A stretch of DNA of 15,460 nt from Pseudobdellovibrionaceae bacterium (GCA_044359815.1 JBIKLL010000066.1:1-15460), one strand, 5' to 3'. Positions 1 to 14,821 are shown, counted from the first letter of the stretch. Made by a program: numbers and translations. The notes: generated by a model not told the origin, from the sequence alone.

Positions 1-244
1 TTTTATGCAGGGATATTTTATGCTCATCGCTTACAGAACCTTCAGAAATTCCCACAGCGCAATTGATAGGGCTATGGCGATCGGACTTTTTTGTGCCATG
101 GTAGCTTTTAATATTGGGTCTTTAACGGAATCAAATTTTGAACATGCCAAGGTCAGAATGGCTTTATTGATCGTTTGGTCACTATCCCTTTACCTGTATC
201 TGAACTTATCGAAAACTTTTACCAATCCAAAATCCAAACCTTAG
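1..244 (+). CDS. C-terminal part of an O-antigen ligase (Wzy_C/WaaL-like) family membrane protein; 5' end lies outside the window
   Basis: Hydrophobic helices flanking 'IGSLTESNF...VRMALLIVW', resembling the final 'GLTExxF' loop and TM helix of O-antigen ligase family proteins. Stop TAG at 242-244. Confidence 0.55.
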   Translation, partial: FMQGYFMLIAYRTFRNSHSAIDRAMAIGLFCAMVAFNIGSLTESNFEHAKVRMALLIVWSLSLYLYLNLSKTFTNPKSKP

Positions 245-317
245 TTACTGACTCATTTAAACTTAACTAAAATTTTAATTTCAAAATACTTTATTGCAAG
301 CAACTAAGAAAGTGCCT

Positions 318-1706
318 CTAAACGGCCTCTAGGTCCAAATCTTCAGTCTGTTTGGCTGACATATTTAACAACAACGCGACTTCGTGAATGGAGTGTTCCA
401 GCAACACCACTGACTGCACAAAGCTTTCAAAAGCCTCACCGCTAAGCCTGGAAGTTTCAATCAGATTTTTCATGGGATCTTCAATTGGAATGATAAACTC
501 ATTCATCTGATCAATAAACGGACCAAACAGTTCAGCAATTTTTTGCGACCGTTCGCCCTCTAGCTTACCGCCAATCCGGATTAAATCTAATCTGGTCACC
601 AAATCTTTAATTTGATTTGTGTTCTTTGATAGCAGTTTTAAATTTTCTAAAAACTTGCGCTGATATTTTACGTTGTCAGAGAACAATTTAACGATTTCAT
701 TGTTCATTGTTCTGGCGTCGTCGACCAGATTTGCCAGTTCGGCTTGGTTTTTAAATTTTCCGGCATACAAATCAGCGACGTTCTCTTGTACCTGAAACAT
801 CAGCATTTCGATCAGGGCTCTGGATGACAATACAGCAAAAACGACTTTTTCTGATTCGTTCATAATGTCGTTTGACATTGTTTTAAAACTTTTGAAATTT
901 TGCAAAACATCAGCGGCAATTTTCTGAAAGGTATTTGCAACAACAACCAGCGTTCGGCCGTCTTGGCCCAGATTGTGGGCTGCTATTGCCATATTGATGG
1001 ATAGGCTTTCAAGGTTTAAAAATGATCCTTCGATTATGTTTGCACAATCTGAAATTTGCTTATGCAATCCCTCAAATCCAAAATCTTTTCTGGAAAAATC
1101 TTTAAAGTTTCCAACCACTCGAAACAAAATCTGCTGAATGTCTAAAAACAAATTTTCGATGGTACTGCCGTTGGACCGGGTAATGGCATCCTTGGCTTTC
1201 ATTTTATCGTCTCTTGAAAACAGCTCAGTCATCAACGCATGTTTCATAAAATGATCATAGGATTTAAACCCAAGCTCATTGATTCTTTTGACTAAATAGC
1301 CCAGGGCCTCGTTCATCCCATGTTTGTCTTCATATTCCAGAACATCTTGGTACAAAGCTTTAATGACCGTCAGCAGTTCAGAGGTCGGCTTGAGCCTGAC
1401 AGATATGTACCCAGATTTGGTCGGAAAAATGCAAGCTAACACCCAATAGTATTTTCCGTTTTTAGATTTATTTTTAACGTAACCAACAAAAATTTTATCT
1501 AAAGCTATTTCGGTCCACACCAGTTTAAAAACACATCTGGGCATATTAGGGTGTCTGATAATGTTGTGAGGTTTACCAATTAAATCATTGCGATCGTATT
1601 CAGACACTCTGACAAACACATTGTTACCAGTTTGTATGATGCCTTTTTTGTTGGTTCTGGATACAAAGAGCTCTTCGACTGAATAAAAACTTTCTGATTC
1701 TTGCAT
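318..1706 (-). CDS. Aer-type PAS-domain protein with a degenerate methyl-accepting chemotaxis (MCP)-like helical C-terminus; probably soluble
   Basis: N-terminus 'ELFVSRTNKKGII..GNNVFVRVSEY...LIGKPHNIIRHPNMPRCVFKLVW...FVGYVKNKSKNGKYYWV...GYISVR' matches the FAD-binding Aer PAS pattern. 'LSINMAIAAHNLGQDGRTLVVVA' resembles the MCP hairpin tip. No obvious TM helix. Confidence 0.8.
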   Translation of the reverse strand: MQESESFYSVEELFVSRTNKKGIIQTGNNVFVRVSEYDRNDLIGKPHNIIRHPNMPRCVFKLVWTEIALDKIFVGYVKNKSKNGKYYWVLACIFPTKSGYISVRLKPTSELLTVIKALYQDVLEYEDKHGMNEALGYLVKRINELGFKSYDHFMKHALMTELFSRDDKMKAKDAITRSNGSTIENLFLDIQQILFRVVGNFKDFSRKDFGFEGLHKQISDCANIIEGSFLNLESLSINMAIAAHNLGQDGRTLVVVANTFQKIAADVLQNFKSFKTMSNDIMNESEKVVFAVLSSRALIEMLMFQVQENVADLYAGKFKNQAELANLVDDARTMNNEIVKLFSDNVKYQRKFLENLKLLSKNTNQIKDLVTRLDLIRIGGKLEGERSQKIAELFGPFIDQMNEFIIPIEDPMKNLIETSRLSGEAFESFVQSVVLLEHSIHEVALLLNMSAKQTEDLDLEAV

Positions 1707-5900: not shown

Positions 5901-6114
5901 TAAACTGCTATAACTTACCCTTTTTCAGCTTGGCAATACTTTGTGCAAATCATGCTACTGACGCAGTAGAACTGTTAGTCAGGTGACTAAACCTTGTCAT
6001 ATCAAGGGTTTCGAAAGCGTCTCATAATGAGAATCACCAGACTGAAGCTTTAAGGTCCGATTTGAATATGTTCAAATAGTGTTAAGACACTCAGTTCAAA
6101 ACGGGGGAACGAAA

Positions 6115-6396
6115 ATGAAAGCGGCTGTAATGCTTTTAATAATTTTTCTGGGAAATATAATATATGCCGAGGCCCAGAGCGTTAGCAATGGTACCGACTC
6201 CTACCTTCAACAAGCAATTCTGATAGCTTCTGACAAACACAGCGATGACAGTAAGGCGGCTCATGAACACGGGGAAGATCTATATTTCAAATACCGGTCT
6301 GTTTCTGACTGCCAGGGCAATTCTGATTGCATTTCAGGTTGGTGGAAGGCTCACAACGAAGAATCTAAGGAATCCAAAGAACCCAAGCCCTTTTAG
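6115..6396 (+). CDS. Small secreted hypothetical protein (93 aa)
   Basis: ATG at 6115 preceded by a GGGGGA SD. Signal peptide MKAAVMLLIIFLGNIIYAEA; a Cys pair (CQGNSDC). Confidence 0.6.
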   Translation: MKAAVMLLIIFLGNIIYAEAQSVSNGTDSYLQQAILIASDKHSDDSKAAHEHGEDLYFKYRSVSDCQGNSDCISGWWKAHNEESKESKEPKPF

Positions 6397-6506: not shown

Positions 6507-7190
6507 ATGCGTTTTACTGTTAATGGCCTATACACTGTCATTACAAAATCCGGCTGGGATAAATACCTGCTGGCCACAGCTTTATTGCTGTTTTGCGTGG
6601 CCTCGAACGCCAAACAATCTAAAGTTAAAATGCCTACCAAAATTTACGAACCTAAACCGATCACAATCATCAAAATGACCTCAGGGTCCACCCAAATAAT
6701 CACAGAATCTGCTGTCACTCGTGATAAAACTGCCGTCGAAAAGATTCCCAATGCTGTATCCATTGAAGCCGGTGGTAAAGGAATCATGTACAGTGTGAAT
6801 TTTGACCGACTGTTGGATTCACAGTGGGCGATCGGTGCTGGCTATTCATTTTATTCACTGGGAACTGCTGACAAAGGCGCAAACATGGCCGTAGTGCCAG
6901 TTTATTCAAATTTTTATTTTACCCAAGAATTTAATCGATACTTTGTGATAGGTGGCTTGGATATCGTCAATGTTCAAATACGTTCTAATAGCGCCAATCC
7001 CACAGACCAAGATAAAATTTTTGAAATCGGAAAAACTCAGCTAAAAAACTCGGTCATTCCAATATTTTTAGCAGGAACAGGCTGGGAGCTCAGAAGCCGA
7101 TCTGGATTTCTTTTCCGAGCCACAGGATATCTGACTTATTTGACTGAAATCCAGCCATGGGCCGGAATTTCCGTCGGTGGCGTTTACTAA
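6507..7190 (+). CDS. Putative small outer-membrane beta-barrel protein
   Basis: AGAGGA SD, hydrophobic signal-like segment (LLATALLLFCVASNA), alternating amphipathic beta-strands rich in Gly/aromatics, C-terminal aromatic residue (GISVGGVY). Confidence 0.6.
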   Translation: MRFTVNGLYTVITKSGWDKYLLATALLLFCVASNAKQSKVKMPTKIYEPKPITIIKMTSGSTQIITESAVTRDKTAVEKIPNAVSIEAGGKGIMYSVNFDRLLDSQWAIGAGYSFYSLGTADKGANMAVVPVYSNFYFTQEFNRYFVIGGLDIVNVQIRSNSANPTDQDKIFEIGKTQLKNSVIPIFLAGTGWELRSRSGFLFRATGYLTYLTEIQPWAGISVGGVY

Positions 7191-7332: not shown

Positions 7333-10104
7333 ATGCAGTTTGATTGGATCGATCCAAAAAATGAAACCTTGGCAAAATCTGTTTTTAAAAAGTACACAGA
7401 TAAAAATCTAATCCCTGCCGAAAAAAAACCTTTTATCATTGATCTCGAAAAAAGCTTTGGACCCTATATCAGTGTTAAATCAGAATCTGGGGACAATAAA
7501 ATTCTGTTGGATGCAGGATCGCAGATCGCCAGTCTTGGGTTTGGTTTTAATCATCAAAGTTTTTTTGGAGTCGCACACAACCCGGCAGCTTGGAACAATA
7601 AATCAGACCCTACAACCAGGGCCCGTTATGATGCTTTCTTAAAACGAACACTTAAATGGAATTCATTAAAATCAATTGTTTGTAATTCTGGTGCTGAGGC
7701 AAACGAAATCGCCTTAGGCCATTGCTTTGAAAACCGCTCCAACAAATCAGCTAAGAAAGTTTTAGCATTTAAAGGAAGCTTTCACGGTAGAATGCTGGTT
7801 TCGCTATGGAGCTCGTGGGCTCCGGCAAAGCGAGTTCCATTTCAGTGGCCTGGGTTTGAAACTACTTTTGTGGATTATCCAGAATCTCGGGATGGTGTCA
7901 TTCAAGCCCCATTTAAAAAGGACTGGCTTAAATTGTGGTCTGCTGAATCTGATTCTGATTTTAATGAAGCCCTTGATAAAATAAAAGGTCAATCAGACCC
8001 TTTGTTAACCAAAGAAATTGATTCACTTCTGCAAATCAGAAATGAAATTAAATCTGATCAATATTTTGCTGTCATCATTGAACCCATGCAATGCGAAGGC
8101 GGTGATGCCTATACGACAGATCGATTTCACAATGGATTAATCAATCTGTGCAAAACATTGAAAGTGCCGTTGATATATGACGAAGTTCAAACGGGATTTC
8201 ATTTGGGCGATAGCTTTTTTTGGCACCAACAGTTTGATCTGAAAAATATTTATTCTGAATCATTGAAACCGGATTTTGTCACTTGTGCCAAAAAAGCACA
8301 GGTTGGATTAGTCTTGATGCCAAATATTTGCGAAGCTGCAGATGAATTGCATTCGCAGGCCAGTCTTTATCGTGGACTAATTCATGCATCAATGCTTGAG
8401 CAAAACCACCTTAAGATCTTAGAAATTCAAAAATACTGTTCGGCAAAATTAAATGAACTGTGCAAATCATTTAGTGATTTAATCACAGATCCCCGCGGTC
8501 AGGGATTAGCCTTTGCTTTTAGGTTTTTAAATTCTGATCACTTAAACCCATTTATTGGTTTTAGATTTTCTGAAGGCATTATGTGCTACCCAGCTGGTAC
8601 AGACACCGCCAGGTTTAGACTGAATTTAGCATTTACTAATTCAGATATTGATTTGCTGTTTCTGGCCCTATCAAACATGCTTAAAAAGATTCAAAAGGTC
8701 CCGACGGATTCTATCCCGGCAATTGATCGAAAAATCGTCGACAGATATTCTGTCCATCAGAAACTACTCAGTCTAAAAAACAGCAAGCAGAAACTGTCCC
8801 TGCAAGATTCCAAAAAAATGGCTGCAGATTTTCTGAAATCCCAATTAGCTGCCCGAGGCCTGGCCCATTTACAGATTCAGTTTATTGAGAGACAAAATAT
8901 GGATCAGTATTTGATACCCTTGGAAGATTTTGAGACCGCAATTTATGAAAGATCCCGCGTCACTACTGCCGATGAATTTAAAAAAGCCCTGGAATCAAAA
9001 CATGGGCTTGGAATCCTGGTATTAGAAGAATCAAAAATTATTGCCGTTTGTATTGGCGGCTCCATATCTGAATTTAAAAATATCAAAGGCACAGAATCCG
9101 ATCCAAACATTGATGATCCAAATGCAGTTTATATGGTGGATACAGGTGTTCGAACAGAATTTCATGGTAAACAAATTGGTGAGATTTTAAAAACTGCTTA
9201 TTGCATGATTGCTTCACAAATTGGTGTCACTCACATCAGCGGCAGAAACCGAGAAGTTTACGCAAAATCTATGTTTAGCTTAAATGCCAGCCTTGGTGCC
9301 ACCGAGGTCACCAGAGTGCCCGATGCCTATAATGATGATTTGTTTTTCAAGGATTCAATTTATTATTCAATACCCCTGGAATGGACATCAGAACTCGACA
9401 ACAAATTTGTCGCTAAAGCTATGCCTTATATTGTAAATAAAATGACTCTTTCAAATTTTATTGATGATTCGTTGCTGGTAGCTCTTGAAAAAATCGCCGA
9501 CAAAATGCCAACTGAGCTTAGGCATTGCTACACAACATCGGGTCTGTCAGAGTGTGTAGACAAAGTTGAAAAATCAATTTGGTATTTTGATAAAAAATCA
9601 AATAAGCAAATTTCTTTTAAAGGACAGAATTTCGGTCGAGGCAGCTTTCTGGCCAGAAGTTTGAGCCAACCTGTGGATAGCTTTTTCCCAGTGACCCAAC
9701 TGGATGAACCCACAGAAAATAATTGGAAAGCTGTCTTGAGTGCAATCACTCAAAATATAGAAAATAATCTGTACCAAGCCGTTTGGATCGAACCTATTTC
9801 GTCAGTCAGCGGGCAAAAGGTGCCCCTTGATTTTTTAAAAGCTCTTAGGATTTTATGTGATCAAAAAAATGTGGCTTTAGTGTTTAACGAAACCAATAGT
9901 CAGAATCACGGTTACGACAAGGGAAACTATTTTGCCAGTCAGCTGGTAACACCTGATTTGGCTTTTGCATATTTGCAGGGTCAAATGGGAATTGTATTTA
10001 GCTCAAAAAAATATTTTGTGACAGAGCCGCTGTCACTAATCAGCACCTGGGATGGTGATATGTTTTCATTGCTTAGCTATGTCGAGAGGAATTTAAACAA
10101 ATAA
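7333..10104 (+). CDS. Fusion protein: class III PLP aminotransferase (lysine-6-aminotransferase/GABA-T-like) + GNAT acetyltransferase + degenerate second aminotransferase module
   Basis: N-module: 'NSGAEANE', 'FKGSFHGR', 'IIEPMQCEGGD', 'YDEVQTG' (D283), 'AKKAQV' (K320/K321). Middle: GNAT motif A 'VRTEFHGKQIG' (~aa 606-616). C-module: 'TTSGLSECVDK', 'FKGQNFG', 'VWIEPI', 'FNET', 'ISTWDG'. Confidence 0.85.
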   Translation: MQFDWIDPKNETLAKSVFKKYTDKNLIPAEKKPFIIDLEKSFGPYISVKSESGDNKILLDAGSQIASLGFGFNHQSFFGVAHNPAAWNNKSDPTTRARYDAFLKRTLKWNSLKSIVCNSGAEANEIALGHCFENRSNKSAKKVLAFKGSFHGRMLVSLWSSWAPAKRVPFQWPGFETTFVDYPESRDGVIQAPFKKDWLKLWSAESDSDFNEALDKIKGQSDPLLTKEIDSLLQIRNEIKSDQYFAVIIEPMQCEGGDAYTTDRFHNGLINLCKTLKVPLIYDEVQTGFHLGDSFFWHQQFDLKNIYSESLKPDFVTCAKKAQVGLVLMPNICEAADELHSQASLYRGLIHASMLEQNHLKILEIQKYCSAKLNELCKSFSDLITDPRGQGLAFAFRFLNSDHLNPFIGFRFSEGIMCYPAGTDTARFRLNLAFTNSDIDLLFLALSNMLKKIQKVPTDSIPAIDRKIVDRYSVHQKLLSLKNSKQKLSLQDSKKMAADFLKSQLAARGLAHLQIQFIERQNMDQYLIPLEDFETAIYERSRVTTADEFKKALESKHGLGILVLEESKIIAVCIGGSISEFKNIKGTESDPNIDDPNAVYMVDTGVRTEFHGKQIGEILKTAYCMIASQIGVTHISGRNREVYAKSMFSLNASLGATEVTRVPDAYNDDLFFKDSIYYSIPLEWTSELDNKFVAKAMPYIVNKMTLSNFIDDSLLVALEKIADKMPTELRHCYTTSGLSECVDKVEKSIWYFDKKSNKQISFKGQNFGRGSFLARSLSQPVDSFFPVTQLDEPTENNWKAVLSAITQNIENNLYQAVWIEPISSVSGQKVPLDFLKALRILCDQKNVALVFNETNSQNHGYDKGNYFASQLVTPDLAFAYLQGQMGIVFSSKKYFVTEPLSLISTWDGDMFSLLSYVERNLNK

Positions 10105-11160
10105 ATGGAAATTGGATTTCCTGTAATTAAATATCAAAAGGGACTTTCGCAGAAACAATGGGGTCAACAGCACGGTGAAGCTTTTCGGGATGCAATCCGG
10201 GAACTGGCTGCTATCCGCACTGATTTGATTTTGTCTGCCAGCAACAGATTTAATAAATCAAACATATCTGAAAATTCCAAAATCCAGCTGCGAATAACTG
10301 AGCAGTTTTCGCAGGATTTGTCACAAGAGCTCAAAGGCATTATGGATGGGGCTAATCTGTCGCCATCTGATTGCGTGATATTAAATAATTATACAGATTT
10401 TAGAGACCTCAGTTTTAACAACCAGATTTTGAATGATGGTTGTTCTACGGTTTATGTTAATAACGATGGCAAACATTTAGCTGGTCAAACTTGGGATATG
10501 CACAACAGTGCCAGAAGGTTTCTGGCAGTTATCGATACACCTGATTGCAAAATCATGACAGTTGTTGGTTGCGTGGGATTAATGGGATTTAATTCAGCAA
10601 AATGCATGATAGCAGTCAATAATCTGAACACAACCGACGCTGTGAACGGAGTGATTTGGCCTGTAATGGTCAGAAAATGTTTGCAAGCATCTAAGGTATC
10701 CCAAATGTCCCAGATTTTAAAAACGACCATGGTGACTTCTGGTCATAATTATCTGATTGCTGATTCACAGGGTGCCCAAAATTGGGAAATCACTCCCACT
10801 CAAAAAAAACTTACTCACACAGTGCAATCGGAGGGATTTGTGTTTCACACGAACCACTGCCTGGCACCTGAAACCATAGCTGTTGAATCGGCTGTGAACA
10901 TCAGCCCAACCAGTTTAAAAAGATATAAACTGATTCAAGACAGAATAAATAAAGTTAAATCAGCTGATGATTTTAAAGGATTGCTAACAAGCCATGATGA
11001 GTTTCCACTTTCTGTTTGCTCTCACCCACCGGCAACCAATGCTGAATCCAGCGAAACCTGCGGTGGAGCCATGGCTGATCTGAAATCAGGCCAGTTGTTG
11101 TTTTGGCGAGGCTGCGAAAAACGCAAAGAATTTTTTATTGAAAGGGAATTTCAAATATGA
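10105..11160 (+). CDS. C45 family Ntn-hydrolase (isopenicillin N acyltransferase / Tan-like acyltransferase-hydrolase)
   Basis: 'WGQQHGE', autoproteolysis site G/C113 ('DGCSTV'), 'GQTWD', 'GLMGFNS', 'HNYLIAD', 'HTNHCL'. ATG directly follows the upstream TAA. Confidence 0.88.
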   Translation: MEIGFPVIKYQKGLSQKQWGQQHGEAFRDAIRELAAIRTDLILSASNRFNKSNISENSKIQLRITEQFSQDLSQELKGIMDGANLSPSDCVILNNYTDFRDLSFNNQILNDGCSTVYVNNDGKHLAGQTWDMHNSARRFLAVIDTPDCKIMTVVGCVGLMGFNSAKCMIAVNNLNTTDAVNGVIWPVMVRKCLQASKVSQMSQILKTTMVTSGHNYLIADSQGAQNWEITPTQKKLTHTVQSEGFVFHTNHCLAPETIAVESAVNISPTSLKRYKLIQDRINKVKSADDFKGLLTSHDEFPLSVCSHPPATNAESSETCGGAMADLKSGQLLFWRGCEKRKEFFIEREFQI

Positions 11161-12362
11161 GTTCATTTTTTTATACATGGACTGCGCAAAGCAATGCTCA
11201 AACATTGGATGTGGCCGGCACTGACGGAAGTTTTTTAATATTGAAAACCGGCGCCCGCTTTGATGATTTTATATCTACAAGCTTTCAAACAAATTTTGGT
11301 CATAAAAATTCTAAGATCATGGCAGCAATTTCCGCACAGTTAAACCAAATGCCTATTGCTGCCCCTAAGTGGGATTTCGAACTGAAAGAATCCGTCAGTG
11401 CACAGTTAAAAAGGCTTTTGGGTTTTGCTTCAGGAAAAATATTTTACACCACATCTGGCGCAGAGGCCGTGGAAAATGCTTTGAAGATTGCCAGACAGAT
11501 CACTGGCAAAACAAAAATCCTGGCCAGAAACAACAGCTACCATGGTGCAACCCTGGGGGCTCTGTCTGTGACTGGTGATTGGCGCAATAAAGCCCACAAA
11601 ACACTGAACGATTGGACAGTCAGGATCCCTGAACCCATGCATGACCCCAATTTAGAGATCACTGAAAAAGTGATTTTACAAAACGATCCTGCGACGATCG
11701 CGGCTTTTTGTTTGGAAACAATCAGCGGAACCAATGGCGTGATCATTCCCAGCCAAAATTGGTGGGATGGGATTCAAGCCCTGGCAAAAAAATATGGAAT
11801 TTTATTAATTGTTGACGAAGTTCTGGTTGGATTTGGCAGAACCGGAAGTGACTTTGCCTTTCAGAATTTTTACATCAAGCCTGACATGGTCACAATGTCC
11901 AAAGGCATCACCGGGGGCTACATACCCTTTGGAGCTCTTTGGTGTCATTCGCGCATAGCTGATTTTTACCAAGACAATGTATTGGCCTGTGGTCTGACTC
12001 AGTATGCTCATCCACTGGGATTGGCAGCATTAGGCTCAGTGTTGGAAATATTAAAATCGATAGAGTTTAAAAACCTGCAGCAGGAAAACCTGAAATTAAT
12101 TGAACTGTATTTAACCAGACTGAAAAGACTGGAAACAGTTTCGGATGTTAGGGTTGCCGGAATGCTGGCTGCTGTTGATCTGAGGATTCCTGTGAATCCA
12201 GCAGAGTTTAGCAAAAGAAATTTATTTGTTTTTACCAAACCCAATCAGGTAATCATTGCGCCAGTGTTAACATGCAAACCCAATGACCTGATCAGCGGAT
12301 TGAATCGTTTTTGCGATGCCATTGTGGCTCACCGGATTTCACCCAAGAGCCTTTCACTATGA
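11157..12362 (+). CDS. Class III PLP-dependent aminotransferase (omega/beta-amino acid transaminase type)
   Basis: 'TTSGAEAVENALKIAR', 'SYHGAT', 'IVDEVLVGFGRTG', 'PDMVTMSKGITGGYIP' (PLP Lys249), 'GLTQYAHP'. ATGA overlap with the upstream gene. Confidence 0.93.
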   Translation: MSSFFYTWTAQSNAQTLDVAGTDGSFLILKTGARFDDFISTSFQTNFGHKNSKIMAAISAQLNQMPIAAPKWDFELKESVSAQLKRLLGFASGKIFYTTSGAEAVENALKIARQITGKTKILARNNSYHGATLGALSVTGDWRNKAHKTLNDWTVRIPEPMHDPNLEITEKVILQNDPATIAAFCLETISGTNGVIIPSQNWWDGIQALAKKYGILLIVDEVLVGFGRTGSDFAFQNFYIKPDMVTMSKGITGGYIPFGALWCHSRIADFYQDNVLACGLTQYAHPLGLAALGSVLEILKSIEFKNLQQENLKLIELYLTRLKRLETVSDVRVAGMLAAVDLRIPVNPAEFSKRNLFVFTKPNQVIIAPVLTCKPNDLISGLNRFCDAIVAHRISPKSLSL

Positions 12363-13045
12363 CTGTTTTTAAAGACGCTAGCGAAGCATTATTTGATTTG
12401 AAAGACGGAATGACCCTGATGAGTGGGGGATTTGGTCTGTGCGGAATTGCAGAAAACTGCATCACAGAAATTTTAGCAAAAGGCACAAAAAATCTGACTG
12501 TGATTTCAAACAACATTGGTAATCAGGGTAAGGGCTTAGCCGTGCTGCTGAAAACCGGTCAAATCTCAGAAGCGATTTGTAGTTATATCGGTGGCAATCC
12601 GGATCTGGAAAAATTAATGATGGAAAATAAAATCAAGGTTCAGTTGATCCCTCAGGGAACATTGAGTGAACGTATTCGTGCCGCTGGCATGGGGATTCGA
12701 GCCTTTTACACTCCTACTGGTTACGGAACTGTCGTCGCTGAGGGTAAAGAAATTAAAATATTTGATAAGCCTTGCTTGCTGGAAACTGCCTTGCACGCCG
12801 ATTACGCGATCATCAAGGCCCAAAAAGCTGATCGCTTTAGTAATTTGTGGTTTAAAGAATCCGCCAGGAATTTTTCACCCTTGATGGCAATGGCTGCAAA
12901 AATCAGCGTGGTAGAAGTCGAAGAATGGGGCGACATCAAACCCGAGGATGTTCATTTGCCAGGAATTTTTGTCAAAAGATTGTTTAAGGGCGAAAATTAT
13001 CAAAATCACATCGAACATTTAAAGCTTTCGCAGGACTTAGTATGA
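12359..13045 (+). CDS. scoA: 3-oxoacid CoA-transferase subunit A
   Basis: 'DGMTLMSGGFGLCGIAEN', 'ISNN', 'SYIGGN', 'PQGTLSERIRAAGMGI.AFYTPTG.GT', 'ARNFSP.MA', 'VHLPGIFV'. The true start is most likely ATG 12359 (ATGA overlap). Confidence 0.9.
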   Translation: MTVFKDASEALFDLKDGMTLMSGGFGLCGIAENCITEILAKGTKNLTVISNNIGNQGKGLAVLLKTGQISEAICSYIGGNPDLEKLMMENKIKVQLIPQGTLSERIRAAGMGIRAFYTPTGYGTVVAEGKEIKIFDKPCLLETALHADYAIIKAQKADRFSNLWFKESARNFSPLMAMAAKISVVEVEEWGDIKPEDVHLPGIFVKRLFKGENYQNHIEHLKLSQDLV

Positions 13046-13725
13046 GTTTATCAAAAGGTTTTTCACAAAATCAGATGGCAGACCTGGTGATCAAATTTTT
13101 TAAATCTGATTGTTCGGTTAATTTAGGAATTGGATTGCCCACATTAATTGCCGAAAGAATTCCGGCTGATAAAAATATATTAATACATTCTGAAAACGGA
13201 GTTTTAGGAATCAGTGGCAGACCCACAGCTGATACGGTTTCGCCCACATTGATCAACGCGGGCAAAGAAACTGTAGCTATCAAACCCGGAGCCAGCTTTT
13301 TTGACAGTGCTATGAGCTTTGGGATGATTCGTGGTGGTCATATTGATTTTTGTATTTTAGGTGGGATGCAAGTCGACGCAGAAGGCAGTCTAGCCAATTG
13401 GATGATCCCCGGCAAAAAGGTCACAGGCATGGGCGGCGCCATGGATTTAGTCAATGGAGCCAAGCACGTGATCGTAATGTTAACGCATTTTGATCCCAAG
13501 GGTTTTTCAAAATTGGTTAAAAAATGTGATTTGCCACTGACGGGATTTGCAGTCGTCAACACTGTGGTTACAGATCTGGCGGTGTTTTCTGTGGTCGGTG
13601 GAAAATTTAAAATATTAAATTTAGCACCTGGAATCTCTGTTGCTGATTTACAAATGGGAAAGGATATTTTGGATGAAAGCCTTATTTATCAGTCCACTCA
13701 GGACTCCGTTCACACAGGCCTTTAA
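13042..13725 (+). CDS. scoB: 3-oxoacid CoA-transferase subunit B
   Basis: 'VNLGIGLPT', catalytic 'HSENG', 'INAGKE', 'SFGMIRGGHID..ILG.MQV', 'GMGGAMDL', 'C.LPLTG'. ATGA overlap. Confidence 0.92.
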   Translation: MSLSKGFSQNQMADLVIKFFKSDCSVNLGIGLPTLIAERIPADKNILIHSENGVLGISGRPTADTVSPTLINAGKETVAIKPGASFFDSAMSFGMIRGGHIDFCILGGMQVDAEGSLANWMIPGKKVTGMGGAMDLVNGAKHVIVMLTHFDPKGFSKLVKKCDLPLTGFAVVNTVVTDLAVFSVVGGKFKILNLAPGISVADLQMGKDILDESLIYQSTQDSVHTGL

Positions 13726-14821
13726 GGGTTCATACAAGGACACCAGACCCGACGATTTGTTGACAGAATTGTTCAAGCAAACGCTGAGCCAATTTAGTAA
13801 AAATTATTTTCAGGATATTAGTGATTCAATTGACGAAGTCATCGTCGGTACGGCCTATCCCGAATCCGAACAAGGTTATAACATTGCCAGAACCTGCGCC
13901 CTGGGCTGCAGATTGGACAAACCTGGTTTTACAGTGAATCGCTTGTGTAGCTCATCACTGGAAGCATTGATGATTGCCGTGGCCAAAGTTAATTCGGGTT
14001 TGGGTGATTGTTATCTGGTAGGCGGTGTTGAGTCCATGAGTCGCATTCCCAGGCGCGGGGCAAATTTTTCTGAATCAGCACTTATAAAATCAGCAGCTCC
14101 TGATACCTACGTCACAATGGGCGAAACCGCCGAAAATATTTTTCAGAAATTTAAAATTTCTCGGGAAGCTCAAGAACAATTCAGCATCAGAAGCCATCTG
14201 TTGGCAGAAAAAGCCTGGTCCGAGGGCAAATACCAAGATCAAATTTTTGCCTACCTGTGTGCCAAGGACGAAGGAATCAGATCGCCCTTGAATGTTGAGA
14301 AACTGAAGGCATTGCCACCTGTGTTTAAATCAGAGGGATCAGTAACCGCAGCAACCAGCTCGCCATTAAGTGATGGAGCCTGCGCTGGCTTTGTTGTCAG
14401 TCCTGAATTTGCGAAAAAAATTAGTTTCTCTGATGAAACCAAGCCCAAAGGTTTAAAAATCTTGGATGCTGCTGTTTCCGCTGTTACTCCAGCGCTTATG
14501 GGTATGGGACCAGTGGATGCGACAAAGAAGCTTTTGCACAGAAATAATTTAACCGTTGATGATATTGATGTTTTTGAAATGAACGAGGCTTTTTCAGTGC
14601 AATCGCTTGCTTGTCAAAAGCAGTTAGAAATCCCCGATGAAAAATTAAATCAATGGGGCGGAGCCATCGCCATCGGTCACCCGTTAGGCGCCAGTGGATT
14701 GCGGCTATTGATGACCTGTATGGGAAGATTGTCCGAGATCAAAACAAAAAATCCAAAAGGAATAGTCACACTGTGTGTTGGCGGCGGCCAAGGCGTTTCC
14801 GTGCTGGTGGAGAGCCTATGA
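13673..14821 (+). CDS. Thiolase (acetyl-CoA C-acyltransferase)
   Basis: 'RTPF', 'NIAR', 'VNRLCSSS' (Cys), 'GGVESMS', 'MGETAE', 'EMNEAF', 'GGAIAIGHPLGASG', 'TLCVGGGQG'. ATG 13673 with AAGGA upstream overlaps scoB by 53 nt. Confidence 0.93.
   Translation: MKALFISPLRTPFTQAFKGSYKDTRPDDLLTELFKQTLSQFSKNYFQDISDSIDEVIVGTAYPESEQGYNIARTCALGCRLDKPGFTVNRLCSSSLEALMIAVAKVNSGLGDCYLVGGVESMSRIPRRGANFSESALIKSAAPDTYVTMGETAENIFQKFKISREAQEQFSIRSHLLAEKAWSEGKYQDQIFAYLCAKDEGIRSPLNVEKLKALPPVFKSEGSVTAATSSPLSDGACAGFVVSPEFAKKISFSDETKPKGLKILDAAVSAVTPALMGMGPVDATKKLLHRNNLTVDDIDVFEMNEAFSVQSLACQKQLEIPDEKLNQWGGAIAIGHPLGASGLRLLMTCMGRLSEIKTKNPKGIVTLCVGGGQGVSVLVESL

Follow-up and report, generated by a model that had tools for sequence, protein, structure and literature searches.

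A fused class III aminotransferase in which one module probably completes the other's active site

Class III aminotransferases are obligate homodimers. How such an enzyme could assemble its active site when the residues that two identical subunits normally exchange are divided between two unequal halves of one polypeptide is the question raised by a gene of a Pseudobdellovibrionaceae bacterium. The stretch of DNA analyzed here, hereafter the window, is one entire contig of 15,460 bases (GCA_044359815.1 JBIKLL010000066.1:1-15460) from a draft genome of 2.95 Mb in 125 contigs, which is 91% complete. The gene (7333..10104, + strand) has a ribosome binding site, AAGGGGG, 5 bases upstream of its ATG and encodes 923 amino acids plus a stop codon. 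The product consists of an N-terminal aminotransferase module (N-module), a linker, a GNAT (GCN5-related N-acetyltransferase) domain, and a C-terminal aminotransferase-like module (C-module). A sequence-only reading of this DNA had proposed that the two modules lost complementary motifs and complement each other. This proposal is supported by the losses, which are complementary and invariant in the family, by the fold of the C-module, and by the predicted pairing of the two modules. We consider it likely that this class III aminotransferase, which resembles lysine 6-aminotransferase (LAT) and ArgD, is a single-chain pseudo-heterodimer.

The two aminotransferase modules and their pairing

A Pfam scan of the 923-residue protein detected one significant family, class III aminotransferase, with 140 bits over residues 29–449. 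The matched region lies in the N-module (7333..8712, + strand; residues 1–460; PF00202), which comprises large and small domains and is apparently active; its score is 140.2 bits against a gathering cut-off of 30.5, and the match covers positions 4–402 of the 403 in the profile. The best solved relative by sequence is LAT from Mycobacterium tuberculosis (PDB 2cin; phmmer, 5e-21). In the structural comparison with VIA-align, LAT (Z 32.8, 396 aligned residues, rmsd 2.6, 27% identity) and the acetylornithine aminotransferase 2ord (Z 32.9) were tied as the top fold matches of the N-module. Its residues were aligned to those of LAT (2cin/2jjf), with a numbering that agrees with "T330S mutant" and "N328A mutant" in the titles of PDB entries. 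Both proteins have the KK, DEVQTG, and E-x-x-Q-x-E-G-G motifs.

Conservation was evaluated in an alignment of 120 sequences, namely, the query and 119 of its best 120 homologs, from which only P0002 was dropped. The homologs were taken from a word-index search, in which 387 of the 7997 candidates scored reached E ≤ 0.001. The catalytic set of the N-module would be made up of S119-G120-A121, E250/E255, D283, Q286, K320, and R427/R429. K320 (8290..8292, + strand), the predicted Schiff-base lysine, is placed opposite K300 of LAT. The segment D283-E-V-Q-T-G288 (8179..8196, + strand), whose Asp is expected to pair with the ring nitrogen of the cofactor, is aligned to DEVQTG of LAT. K320, D283, E284, Q286, and G288 are each found in all 120 sequences. 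The phosphate-binding turn S119-G120-A121 (7687..7695, + strand) is nearly unchanged as well (Ser and Gly, 120/120; Ala, 118/120). Its equivalents in Cv-TA, Gly120 and Ser121, bind the phosphate of pyridoxal 5'-phosphate (PLP), as described in PMC6698932.

The loop that a class III subunit lends to its partner is different. In class III transaminases, the PLP phosphate is fixed by Thr321 and its neighbors, which belong to the other subunit, and the minimal active unit is the dimer because this trans Thr holds the phosphate (PMC6698932). In the N-module, S344-L345-Y346-R347-G348 (8362..8376, + strand) sits opposite S329-T330-W331-G332-G333 of LAT; therefore, the Thr and the aromatic residue of the trans loop are missing. 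The usual S-T-[FWY]-G-G pattern has been replaced by a conserved S-x-x-R-G-Y. At position 345, the six commonest residues are Ala (37 sequences), Leu (20), Val (19), Met (18), Thr (only 9 of the 120), and Phe (9), and the Arg gained at position 347 occurs in 119 of the 120 sequences. Because the Thr loop is lost while the other catalytic residues are kept, the N-module would hold a catalytic apparatus that is complete save for the element normally lent to the partner.

The C-module (9388..10101, + strand; residues 686–923) appears to be a catalytically dead aminotransferase large domain, without a small domain in this protein. When the last 257 residues were scanned alone, PF00202 matched with 24.7 bits, below the cut-off of 30.5, with an E value of 1.2e-5 over profile positions 57–254 of 403, and the catalytic Lys and Asp are both absent. 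Searches of the PDB gave 4.9e-8 with phmmer and 3.1e-7 with a profile of 17 sequences; a profile of the full alignment gave no second stretch that would place the C-module on LAT. The N-part and the C-part of the family were related to each other by hhalign with 96.5% probability (E 8e-10). Judged by its sequence, the C-module is a homolog of class III aminotransferases and not a functional member. The prediction that it adopts the large domain of fold type I was borne out by its own AlphaFold2 (AF2) model (pLDDT 90.9): all of the listed Foldseek matches in the PDB are class III-fold enzymes (TMq 0.66–0.79, E ~1e-12). The protein accordingly contains two fold-type-I modules, of which only one has the lysine.

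What the C-module has lost and what it has kept are both invariant. N852-E-T854 (9886..9894, + strand) replaces D-E-V, so the cofactor Asp is gone; Asn is present in 120 of 120 sequences, and in a set of 17 sequences including the distant clades this position is N, K, Q, or H. L881-Q-G-Q-M-G886 (9973..9990, + strand) replaces A-K-K-A-Q-V, and the lysine is lost. Opposite K320-K321, position 882 is Gly in 89 sequences, Ser in 29, and Gln and Val in one each, position 883 is Gly in 119 and Ala in one, and Lys never occurs, nor does it in the set of 17 sequences; Q884 is found in all 120. A vestigial phosphate-binding turn, S736-G-L-S-E740 (9538..9552, + strand), remains (S736 and E740, 120/120; G737, 119/120). 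The trans loop S904-T905-W906-D-G-D909 (10042..10059, + strand) is fully retained, with S904, T905, W906, D907, and D909 in all 120 sequences, and it matches S329-T330-W331 of LAT by motif. The query itself departs from the family at three near-invariant positions of this module (Q738L, E910M, and G882Q).

The motifs pointed out from the sequence alone were all found at the residues proposed, namely, DEVQTG at 283, KKAQV at 320, FNETNS at 851, LQGQMG at 881, LISTWDGD at 902 (S904-T905-W906), and NKMTLSNF at 702. The split pattern (D283, K320, STWD.D, N852, and Q884) is conserved in all 120 sequences; because of this invariance, it is not a matter of chance. The STW triplet, whose variation would have spoken against complementation, is present in 120 of 120 aligned sequences and, as STW[DE]GD, in 17 of 17 when the query is taken together with 16 further genes collected from whole genomes, six of which are only 29–32% identical.

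The segment N702-K-M-T-L-S-N-F709 (9436..9459, + strand) is the first element of the C-module predicted to reach the N-module, and N702, K703, and N708 occur in all 120 sequences. Its likeness to the partner-contributed NKP-S segment of lysine aminotransferases, which had been suggested for N702, is plausible because N702-K703 faces W87–S91 of the N-module, where N88–S91 is itself aligned to NKPS of LAT. The alignment is weak, since residues 700–709 are placed opposite 87–91 in a low-confidence extension of the hhalign alignment; the equivalence also rests on the coordinates of the Pfam profile. An equivalence of NKxxLSNF with the N-terminal E30-K31-K32 was considered and replaced by residues 87–91; the spacing to the S-G turn is 34 versus 30 residues. 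In Cv-TA, F88 of the other subunit lines the active site (PMC6698932).

The C-module of the query ends 14 residues past D909, so that only the large domain is present. The homologs of the closest clade have ~100 further C-terminal residues, which align with the N-module's small domain, whereas the proteins of six deeply diverged loci end 20–25 residues past the STWDGD loop and also have no small domain. Truncation by a frameshift or an assembly error was examined by tblastn of the homologous tails against the window, which found the STWDGD stretch only, in any frame. The short form is natural because there is no downstream remnant, the next gene begins one base past the stop codon, and the six diverged proteins as well as a second record, P0002 (an identical, 5'-truncated copy), end alike. 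Therefore, the STW loop and one helix would be the last part of this end kept by selection.

To examine the pairing of the modules, the complex of N (residues 1–460) and C (residues 686–923) with PLP was predicted as separate chains, each with its slice of the 120-row alignment. Each of three runs joined the modules at the canonical dimer interface with an interface score (ipSAE) of 0.94, and the highest score among three controls was 0.00. In calibration, 116 of 157 solved complexes and 2 of 215 mismatched pairs attained this mark; these counts hold only roughly here, because the alignment was our own and a ligand accompanied the chains. At least 91% of the contacts are shared among the runs, and the pLDDT of the partner is at least 91. 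On the N-module side, the interface consists of residues 117–122, 125–129, 152–156, 319–320, 323–324, 336–344, and 347; on the C-module side, it consists of residues 697–712, 730–740, 768–773, 880–885, 899–906, and 908–912. The pairs with the lowest error include 118:736 and 122:739/740, which join pseudo-equivalent residues and therefore fit a pseudo-twofold axis. K320 and the S119-G120-A121 turn of the N-module and S904–W906 of the C-module all fall within the predicted interface. Residues 339–344 and 347 of the altered N-module loop contact the C-module, residues 697–705 and 707–712 of the C-module are in the interface, and K32 pairs with N708/F709.

Conservation provides an independent check of the predicted interface. 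In the C-module, 18 of the 25 invariant residues are in the interface, which takes up 70 of its 238 residues (Fisher p 3.8e-6). In the N-module, the figures are 14 of 61 invariant residues in an interface of 70 of 460 residues (p 0.058); the enrichment is weaker because the invariant residues of this module are mostly catalytic ones or belong to the core. The AF2 model of the full-length protein has a pLDDT of 93.3 and a pTM of 0.93. When this model was compared with 48,161 chains by VIA-align, the rows covered only residues ~7–458, except for one (7lm0) that spans 13..782. The P-protein of glycine decarboxylase was absent among the 50 rows listed, which speaks neither for nor against a pseudo-dimer.

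By prediction, the two modules would pair through the canonical interface to build one active site. The C-module, as a duplicated large domain without Asp and Lys, would pack on the N-module across the canonical twofold interface and lend it two elements, the N702–F709 segment and the S904-T905-W906 loop, with T905 probably binding the PLP phosphate. The outcome would be one complete active site and, presumably, one PLP per chain, with the pairing expected within a single chain and not swapped between two. If so, the family is a natural and conserved case in which one chain supplies both the chemistry-bearing and the loop-lending "subunit". It would be a clean system in which to ask what the partner subunit gives to a PLP site and a natural template for engineered single-chain or asymmetric transaminases.

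The GNAT-like domain, the operon, and the proposed function

The N-module and C-module are joined by ~230 residues. The helical linker (8713..8862, + strand; residues 461–510), with helices at 471–483 and 490–507 in the model, is the least conserved part of the protein (mean column conservation 0.45, compared with 0.62–0.66 in the three modules). It is followed by a GNAT-like domain (8863..9387, + strand; residues ~511–685). An acetyltransferase domain had been placed at residues ~515–685 from the sequence, and this assignment holds for the family better than for the query. The model shows a GNAT-like order of strands and helices (residues 514–681), and 10 of 17 family members scanned matched PF00583 at E ≤ 0.01 (best 3.1e-5). 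The copy of the query stays under the PF00583 cut-off, and here the assignment is weaker. The middle part of the protein scanned alone hit GNAT families at E ~0.01, PF00583 is precomputed for 7 of the 120 listed homologs, and the top PDB match of the family profile in this region is RimI (2cnm, 6.7e-4). Invariant residues of the domain, including Y538, E539, R542, Y600, G616, N639, and R640, argue for a working domain.

The fusion gene is the first of a tightly packed operon, in which it is followed by a C45 gene, a second class III aminotransferase gene, genes for CoA transferase subunits A and B, and a thiolase gene. The C45 family autoproteolytic acyltransferase/hydrolase (10105..11160, + strand; NF040521, 162 bits against a cut-off of 85) begins one base past the stop codon of the fusion gene, and its protein keeps the nucleophile Cys together with the invariant QTWDMH and HTNH motifs. 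In 15 of the 16 other loci, the C45 gene also adjoins the fusion gene. The second aminotransferase (11157..12362, + strand; PF00202, 216 bits) is an ordinary one. The two subunits of a 3-oxoacid-type CoA transferase (12311..13725, + strand) score above the cut-offs of TIGR02429 and TIGR02428, and the thiolase (13640..14821, + strand), an acetyl-CoA C-acyltransferase, has 371 bits against a cut-off of 240 in TIGR01930. In 9 of the 10 loci of the closest clade, the aminotransferase gene and both CoA transferase genes lie 3' of the fusion gene. Of the 6 distant loci, 3 have an aminotransferase and a thiolase no farther than ~6 kb away, and 2 of these 3 have CoA transferase genes there as well.

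Six of the 150 relatives listed (P0220, P0221, P0226, P0242, P0244, and P0253; 1561–1759 residues) carry an aldehyde dehydrogenase N-terminal to the aminotransferase, GNAT domain, and pseudo-aminotransferase. Their C-modules retain the small domain, with a PP[LIV]D-type end. AstD is the best NCBIfam model of the fused dehydrogenase in the four that were tested. Among NCBIfam models, those closest to the N-module are LAT, ArgD, AstC, LysJ, and putrescine aminotransferase.

Because the NCBIfam neighbors of the N-module, the context of C45 enzyme, CoA transferase, and thiolase, and the AstD-like fusions point together in this direction, we tentatively propose that a basic amino acid or a diamine undergoes omega-transamination under acyl protection, a function that we hold to be possible although somewhat short of probable. 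The GNAT domain would N-acylate one amino group of a substrate such as lysine, ornithine, cadaverine, or putrescine, and the acylation would prevent cyclization of the product. The N-module would then transaminate the other, omega amino group to give an aldehyde. This would be oxidized by an aldehyde dehydrogenase, which is fused in some relatives and would be encoded elsewhere in this genome. The adjacent C45 enzyme would remove or transfer the acyl group, and the CoA transferase and the thiolase would return the carbon skeleton or the released acyl group to CoA metabolism. The same order is known from the arginine succinyltransferase pathway (AstA, AstC, AstD, and AstE) and from the acetyl-ornithine route, in which N-acylation by an acyl-CoA is followed by class III omega-transamination, oxidation of the semialdehyde, and deacylation. 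The logic proposed for the fusion protein matches that of the Ast pathway, as does the AstD-like dehydrogenase of the relatives. However, the GNAT-fold acyltransferase is fused into the transaminase here, and the putative deacylase is a C45 Ntn enzyme and not a metallohydrolase of the ArgE/AstE type.

A more elaborate version, which we think unlikely, is that the GNAT domain lies above the one active site and passes its N-acyl product straight on to the transaminase, that the C-module pocket capped by R347 is re-used for an acyl-CoA or an effector, and that the C45 enzyme cycles the acyl group to CoA or to fresh substrate, as ArgJ does with acetyl. If this were true, the protein would represent a new way of building an asymmetric PLP site, and predatory bacteria would possess a new pathway of cyclic acyl protection. 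In its simpler form, the proposal points to an unrecognized amine-catabolic operon in bacterial predators, which feed on the amino acids and polyamines of their prey.

Alternative explanations

The N-modules of two chains might dimerize in the ordinary way, giving two sites without a trans Thr, while the C-modules pair with each other or act as a scaffold or regulator. The N-module is a complete aminotransferase with Z 32.8–32.9 to homodimeric enzymes, a minority of nine sequences have Thr at position 345, and the complex prediction covered N and C only. However, the predicted N–C interface takes exactly the surface of the homodimer (117–129, 152–156, 319–324, and 336–347), the conservation of the C-module is concentrated there, the losses are complementary and invariant, and the N-module trans loop has itself been remodeled to a conserved form; we regard such a dimer as very improbable. 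A swapped head-to-tail homodimer, in which N of chain A meets C of chain B and the reverse, would give two asymmetric sites with the same chemistry. The ~230 residues of linker and GNAT domain are long enough for either topology, the prediction with separate chains is blind to cis versus trans pairing, and two short relatives, P0250 (563 residues) and P0262 (615 residues), may be natural split forms. Against this stands the compactness of the single-chain AF2 model (pTM 0.93), although a monomer prediction cannot show a swap, and we assign little probability to the swapped form. The C-module could also be a ligand-binding pseudoenzyme that regulates or feeds the active site, with a pocket formed by S736-G737, E820-P821, N852-E853-T854, and Q884 and capped by R347. 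The pocket residues are conserved in 111–120 of the 120 sequences even though catalysis is impossible, R347, conserved in all but one sequence, lies in the interface, and a comparable role has been proposed for the Lys-less half of the P-protein of glycine decarboxylase in PMC7259800. However, in two of the six deeply diverged loci (L024 and L025) the E-P motif is absent and S-G is changed to S-S, and of the seven invariant residues outside the interface, only E820, P821, N852, and D907 are candidates for a pocket. We consider this role unlikely; the ligand would be a molecule bearing a phosphate or carboxylate, such as non-covalent pyridoxamine 5'-phosphate or PLP, an acyl-CoA, or an effector.

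The remaining alternative concerns the direction of the chemistry. In ectoine synthesis, a class III aminotransferase (EctB) is followed by a GNAT enzyme (EctA), and the fusion protein might likewise make an amine by transamination and acylate it, so that the product would be an N-acylated amine. EctB is among the structural matches of the N-module (9s1q). The AstD-like dehydrogenase fused in relatives points instead to conversion of an amine via the aldehyde to an acid, the CoA transferase and the thiolase of the operon are catabolic partners, and no ectoine synthase or other biosynthetic partner was found in the 17 loci examined. A biosynthetic role is thus distinctly unlikely.

The intramolecular pseudo-heterodimer remains the preferred structure, and several points weigh against it. 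All of the evidence for it is computational prediction. The complex prediction was limited to the N and C pair and cannot tell cis from trans pairing, and its score may partly reflect memory of the many solved class III homodimers; it shows likeness to these and not binding between the two modules. Moreover, the C-module retains the vestigial S-G turn, E820-P821, N852, and Q884, and the invariant R347 of the N-module points to this region; the second pocket may therefore have a function of its own beyond plain complementation.

The acyl-protection proposal faces further objections. The N-module is far under every NCBIfam cut-off, for example 84 bits against 610 for AstC (TIGR03246), and it is not an equivalog of LAT because it scores 120.2 bits against a cut-off of 520.8 in TIGR03251. 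The fused dehydrogenases of the relatives also score below the AstD cut-off (TIGR03240, 321–378 bits against 579), so that Ast-type membership is reached by neither. The GNAT domain of the query has 17 bits in PF00583 (E 0.007) against a cut-off of 20.7, and its CoA motif (window 9160–9180, residues ~610–616) reads H-G-K-Q-I-G, compared with Q-G-x-G-x-G in most homologs. There is no aldehyde dehydrogenase gene in the operon of the window. Furthermore, a separate operon of single genes following an acyl-protection plan is present in the same genome (G000, contig C85; locus L036, ~7900–13170, − strand). It encodes a class III aminotransferase (459 residues), a deacylase of the ArgE/DapE family (446 residues), an AstA/AOST-like succinyltransferase (348 residues, 227 bits against a cut-off of 284), and an AstD-like aldehyde dehydrogenase (503 residues, 452 bits against 514).

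Related systems, distribution, and neighboring genes

LAT is a homodimer. In contrast to the fusion protein, each subunit of LAT (Rv3290c; 2cin, and the mutants 2jje, 2jjf, and 2jjh) has both the lysine and the Thr loop. The pseudo-dimer principle has precedents in the P-protein, in SPT1/SPT2, and in SerTA; what is new here is its use by class III omega-transaminases, with the halves fused through a GNAT linker and the lending half trimmed to the lent loop. Our literature searches, whose coverage did not extend to subscription journals, found no paper describing the fusion family.

SerTA (Ser4/Ser5 of Serratia sp. ATCC 39006) combines a full fold-type-I aminotransferase with a short, Lys-less paralog that is mostly a large domain, and each heterodimer has one active site at the interface, where the PLP phosphate is held with the help of the inactive partner (PMC11726168). 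It consists of two polypeptides of the sugar-aminotransferase type, has no GNAT domain, and acts on a carrier-protein-bound substrate (PMC11726168), whereas in the fusion protein both halves are of class III and are joined by the GNAT domain in one chain. The P-protein of glycine decarboxylase is likewise one chain of ~1000 residues with two fold-type-I halves, of which one has the lysine and the other a Gln, and separate alpha and beta subunits occur in some prokaryotes (PMC7259800). In contrast, its inactive half comes first, it is a decarboxylase, and no enzyme domain is inserted between the halves; moreover, the structure of the P-protein is solved, while that of the fusion protein is predicted (PMC7259800). 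Serine palmitoyltransferase (SPT) forms a heterodimer of a Lys-bearing subunit and a Lys-less paralog (SPT1/SPT2) with one active site located at the interface, and the coccolithovirus SPT is a natural fusion whose N-terminal half bears the Lys, the order seen in the fusion protein (PMC6148460). SPT differs in belonging to the alpha-oxoamine synthase family, in its condensation chemistry, and in having no inserted third domain (PMC6148460).

The best 120 homologs are nearly all ~1000–1040 residues long, and those among them with a named source come from Halobacteriovorax, Bacteriovoracaceae, Bdellovibrionales, and Oligoflexia. One member of 1289 residues is named as coming from a Myxococcales genome; the fusion family occurs in predatory Bdellovibrionota and Myxococcota. 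Where public names are given, they are "aminotransferase class III-fold" or similar, some with a GNAT or N-acetyltransferase label, and one is "hypothetical protein". The family is sizeable: 672 representatives reached E ≤ 0.001 in an exhaustive profile search based on the C-module, and E ≤ 1e-30 leaves at least 177 clusters at 50% identity.

Within the phylum, 62 of 301 genomes (300 and that of the window) match at E ≤ 1e-20, including 41 of 67 in one family and 15 of 20 in another, and none of the 35 others in the window's own family. Synteny with the family that has 41 matching genomes extends over the entire operon; its CoA transferases are 62–70% identical, but the fusion protein is only 36–40% identical. 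This distribution could be explained by a transfer of the operon, by loss in the sister genera, or by a mis-binned contig.

The two short relatives mentioned above (3.6-kb contig) fall in the same cluster. P0250 begins at the GNAT domain and runs through a full C-module (STWDGDE, no Lys) without an N-module. They are possibly a natural split form, and a mis-called start or a cut contig could also be involved.

In all 10 loci of the closest clade (L014–L023), an open reading frame (ORF) of 329–342 residues lies directly 5' of the fusion gene (e.g., L014:6941-7966); the two that were scanned (L014 and L022) encode ATP-grasp proteins of the D-Ala-D-Ala ligase family. This ORF is preceded in 9 of the 10 loci by one of 582–604 residues, which is threonyl-tRNA synthetase-like in the one scanned (L014). 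In one of the 16 other loci, a deeply diverged one, the fusion gene is adjoined by a diaminopimelate epimerase gene (L029:11352-12128, − strand), a weak hint to diaminopimelate or lysine as the substrate. The upstream position in the window is taken by an ORF of 227 residues (6507–7190) with no family match. Two further ORFs of the window, one of 375 residues (1854–2981, − strand) and one of 105 residues (6079–6396, + strand), have no match in Pfam or NCBIfam. The other genes 5' of the operon encode an M48 peptidase, a C39-like peptidase, an S58 (DmpA-type) peptidase, and a PAS/MCP-signal protein.

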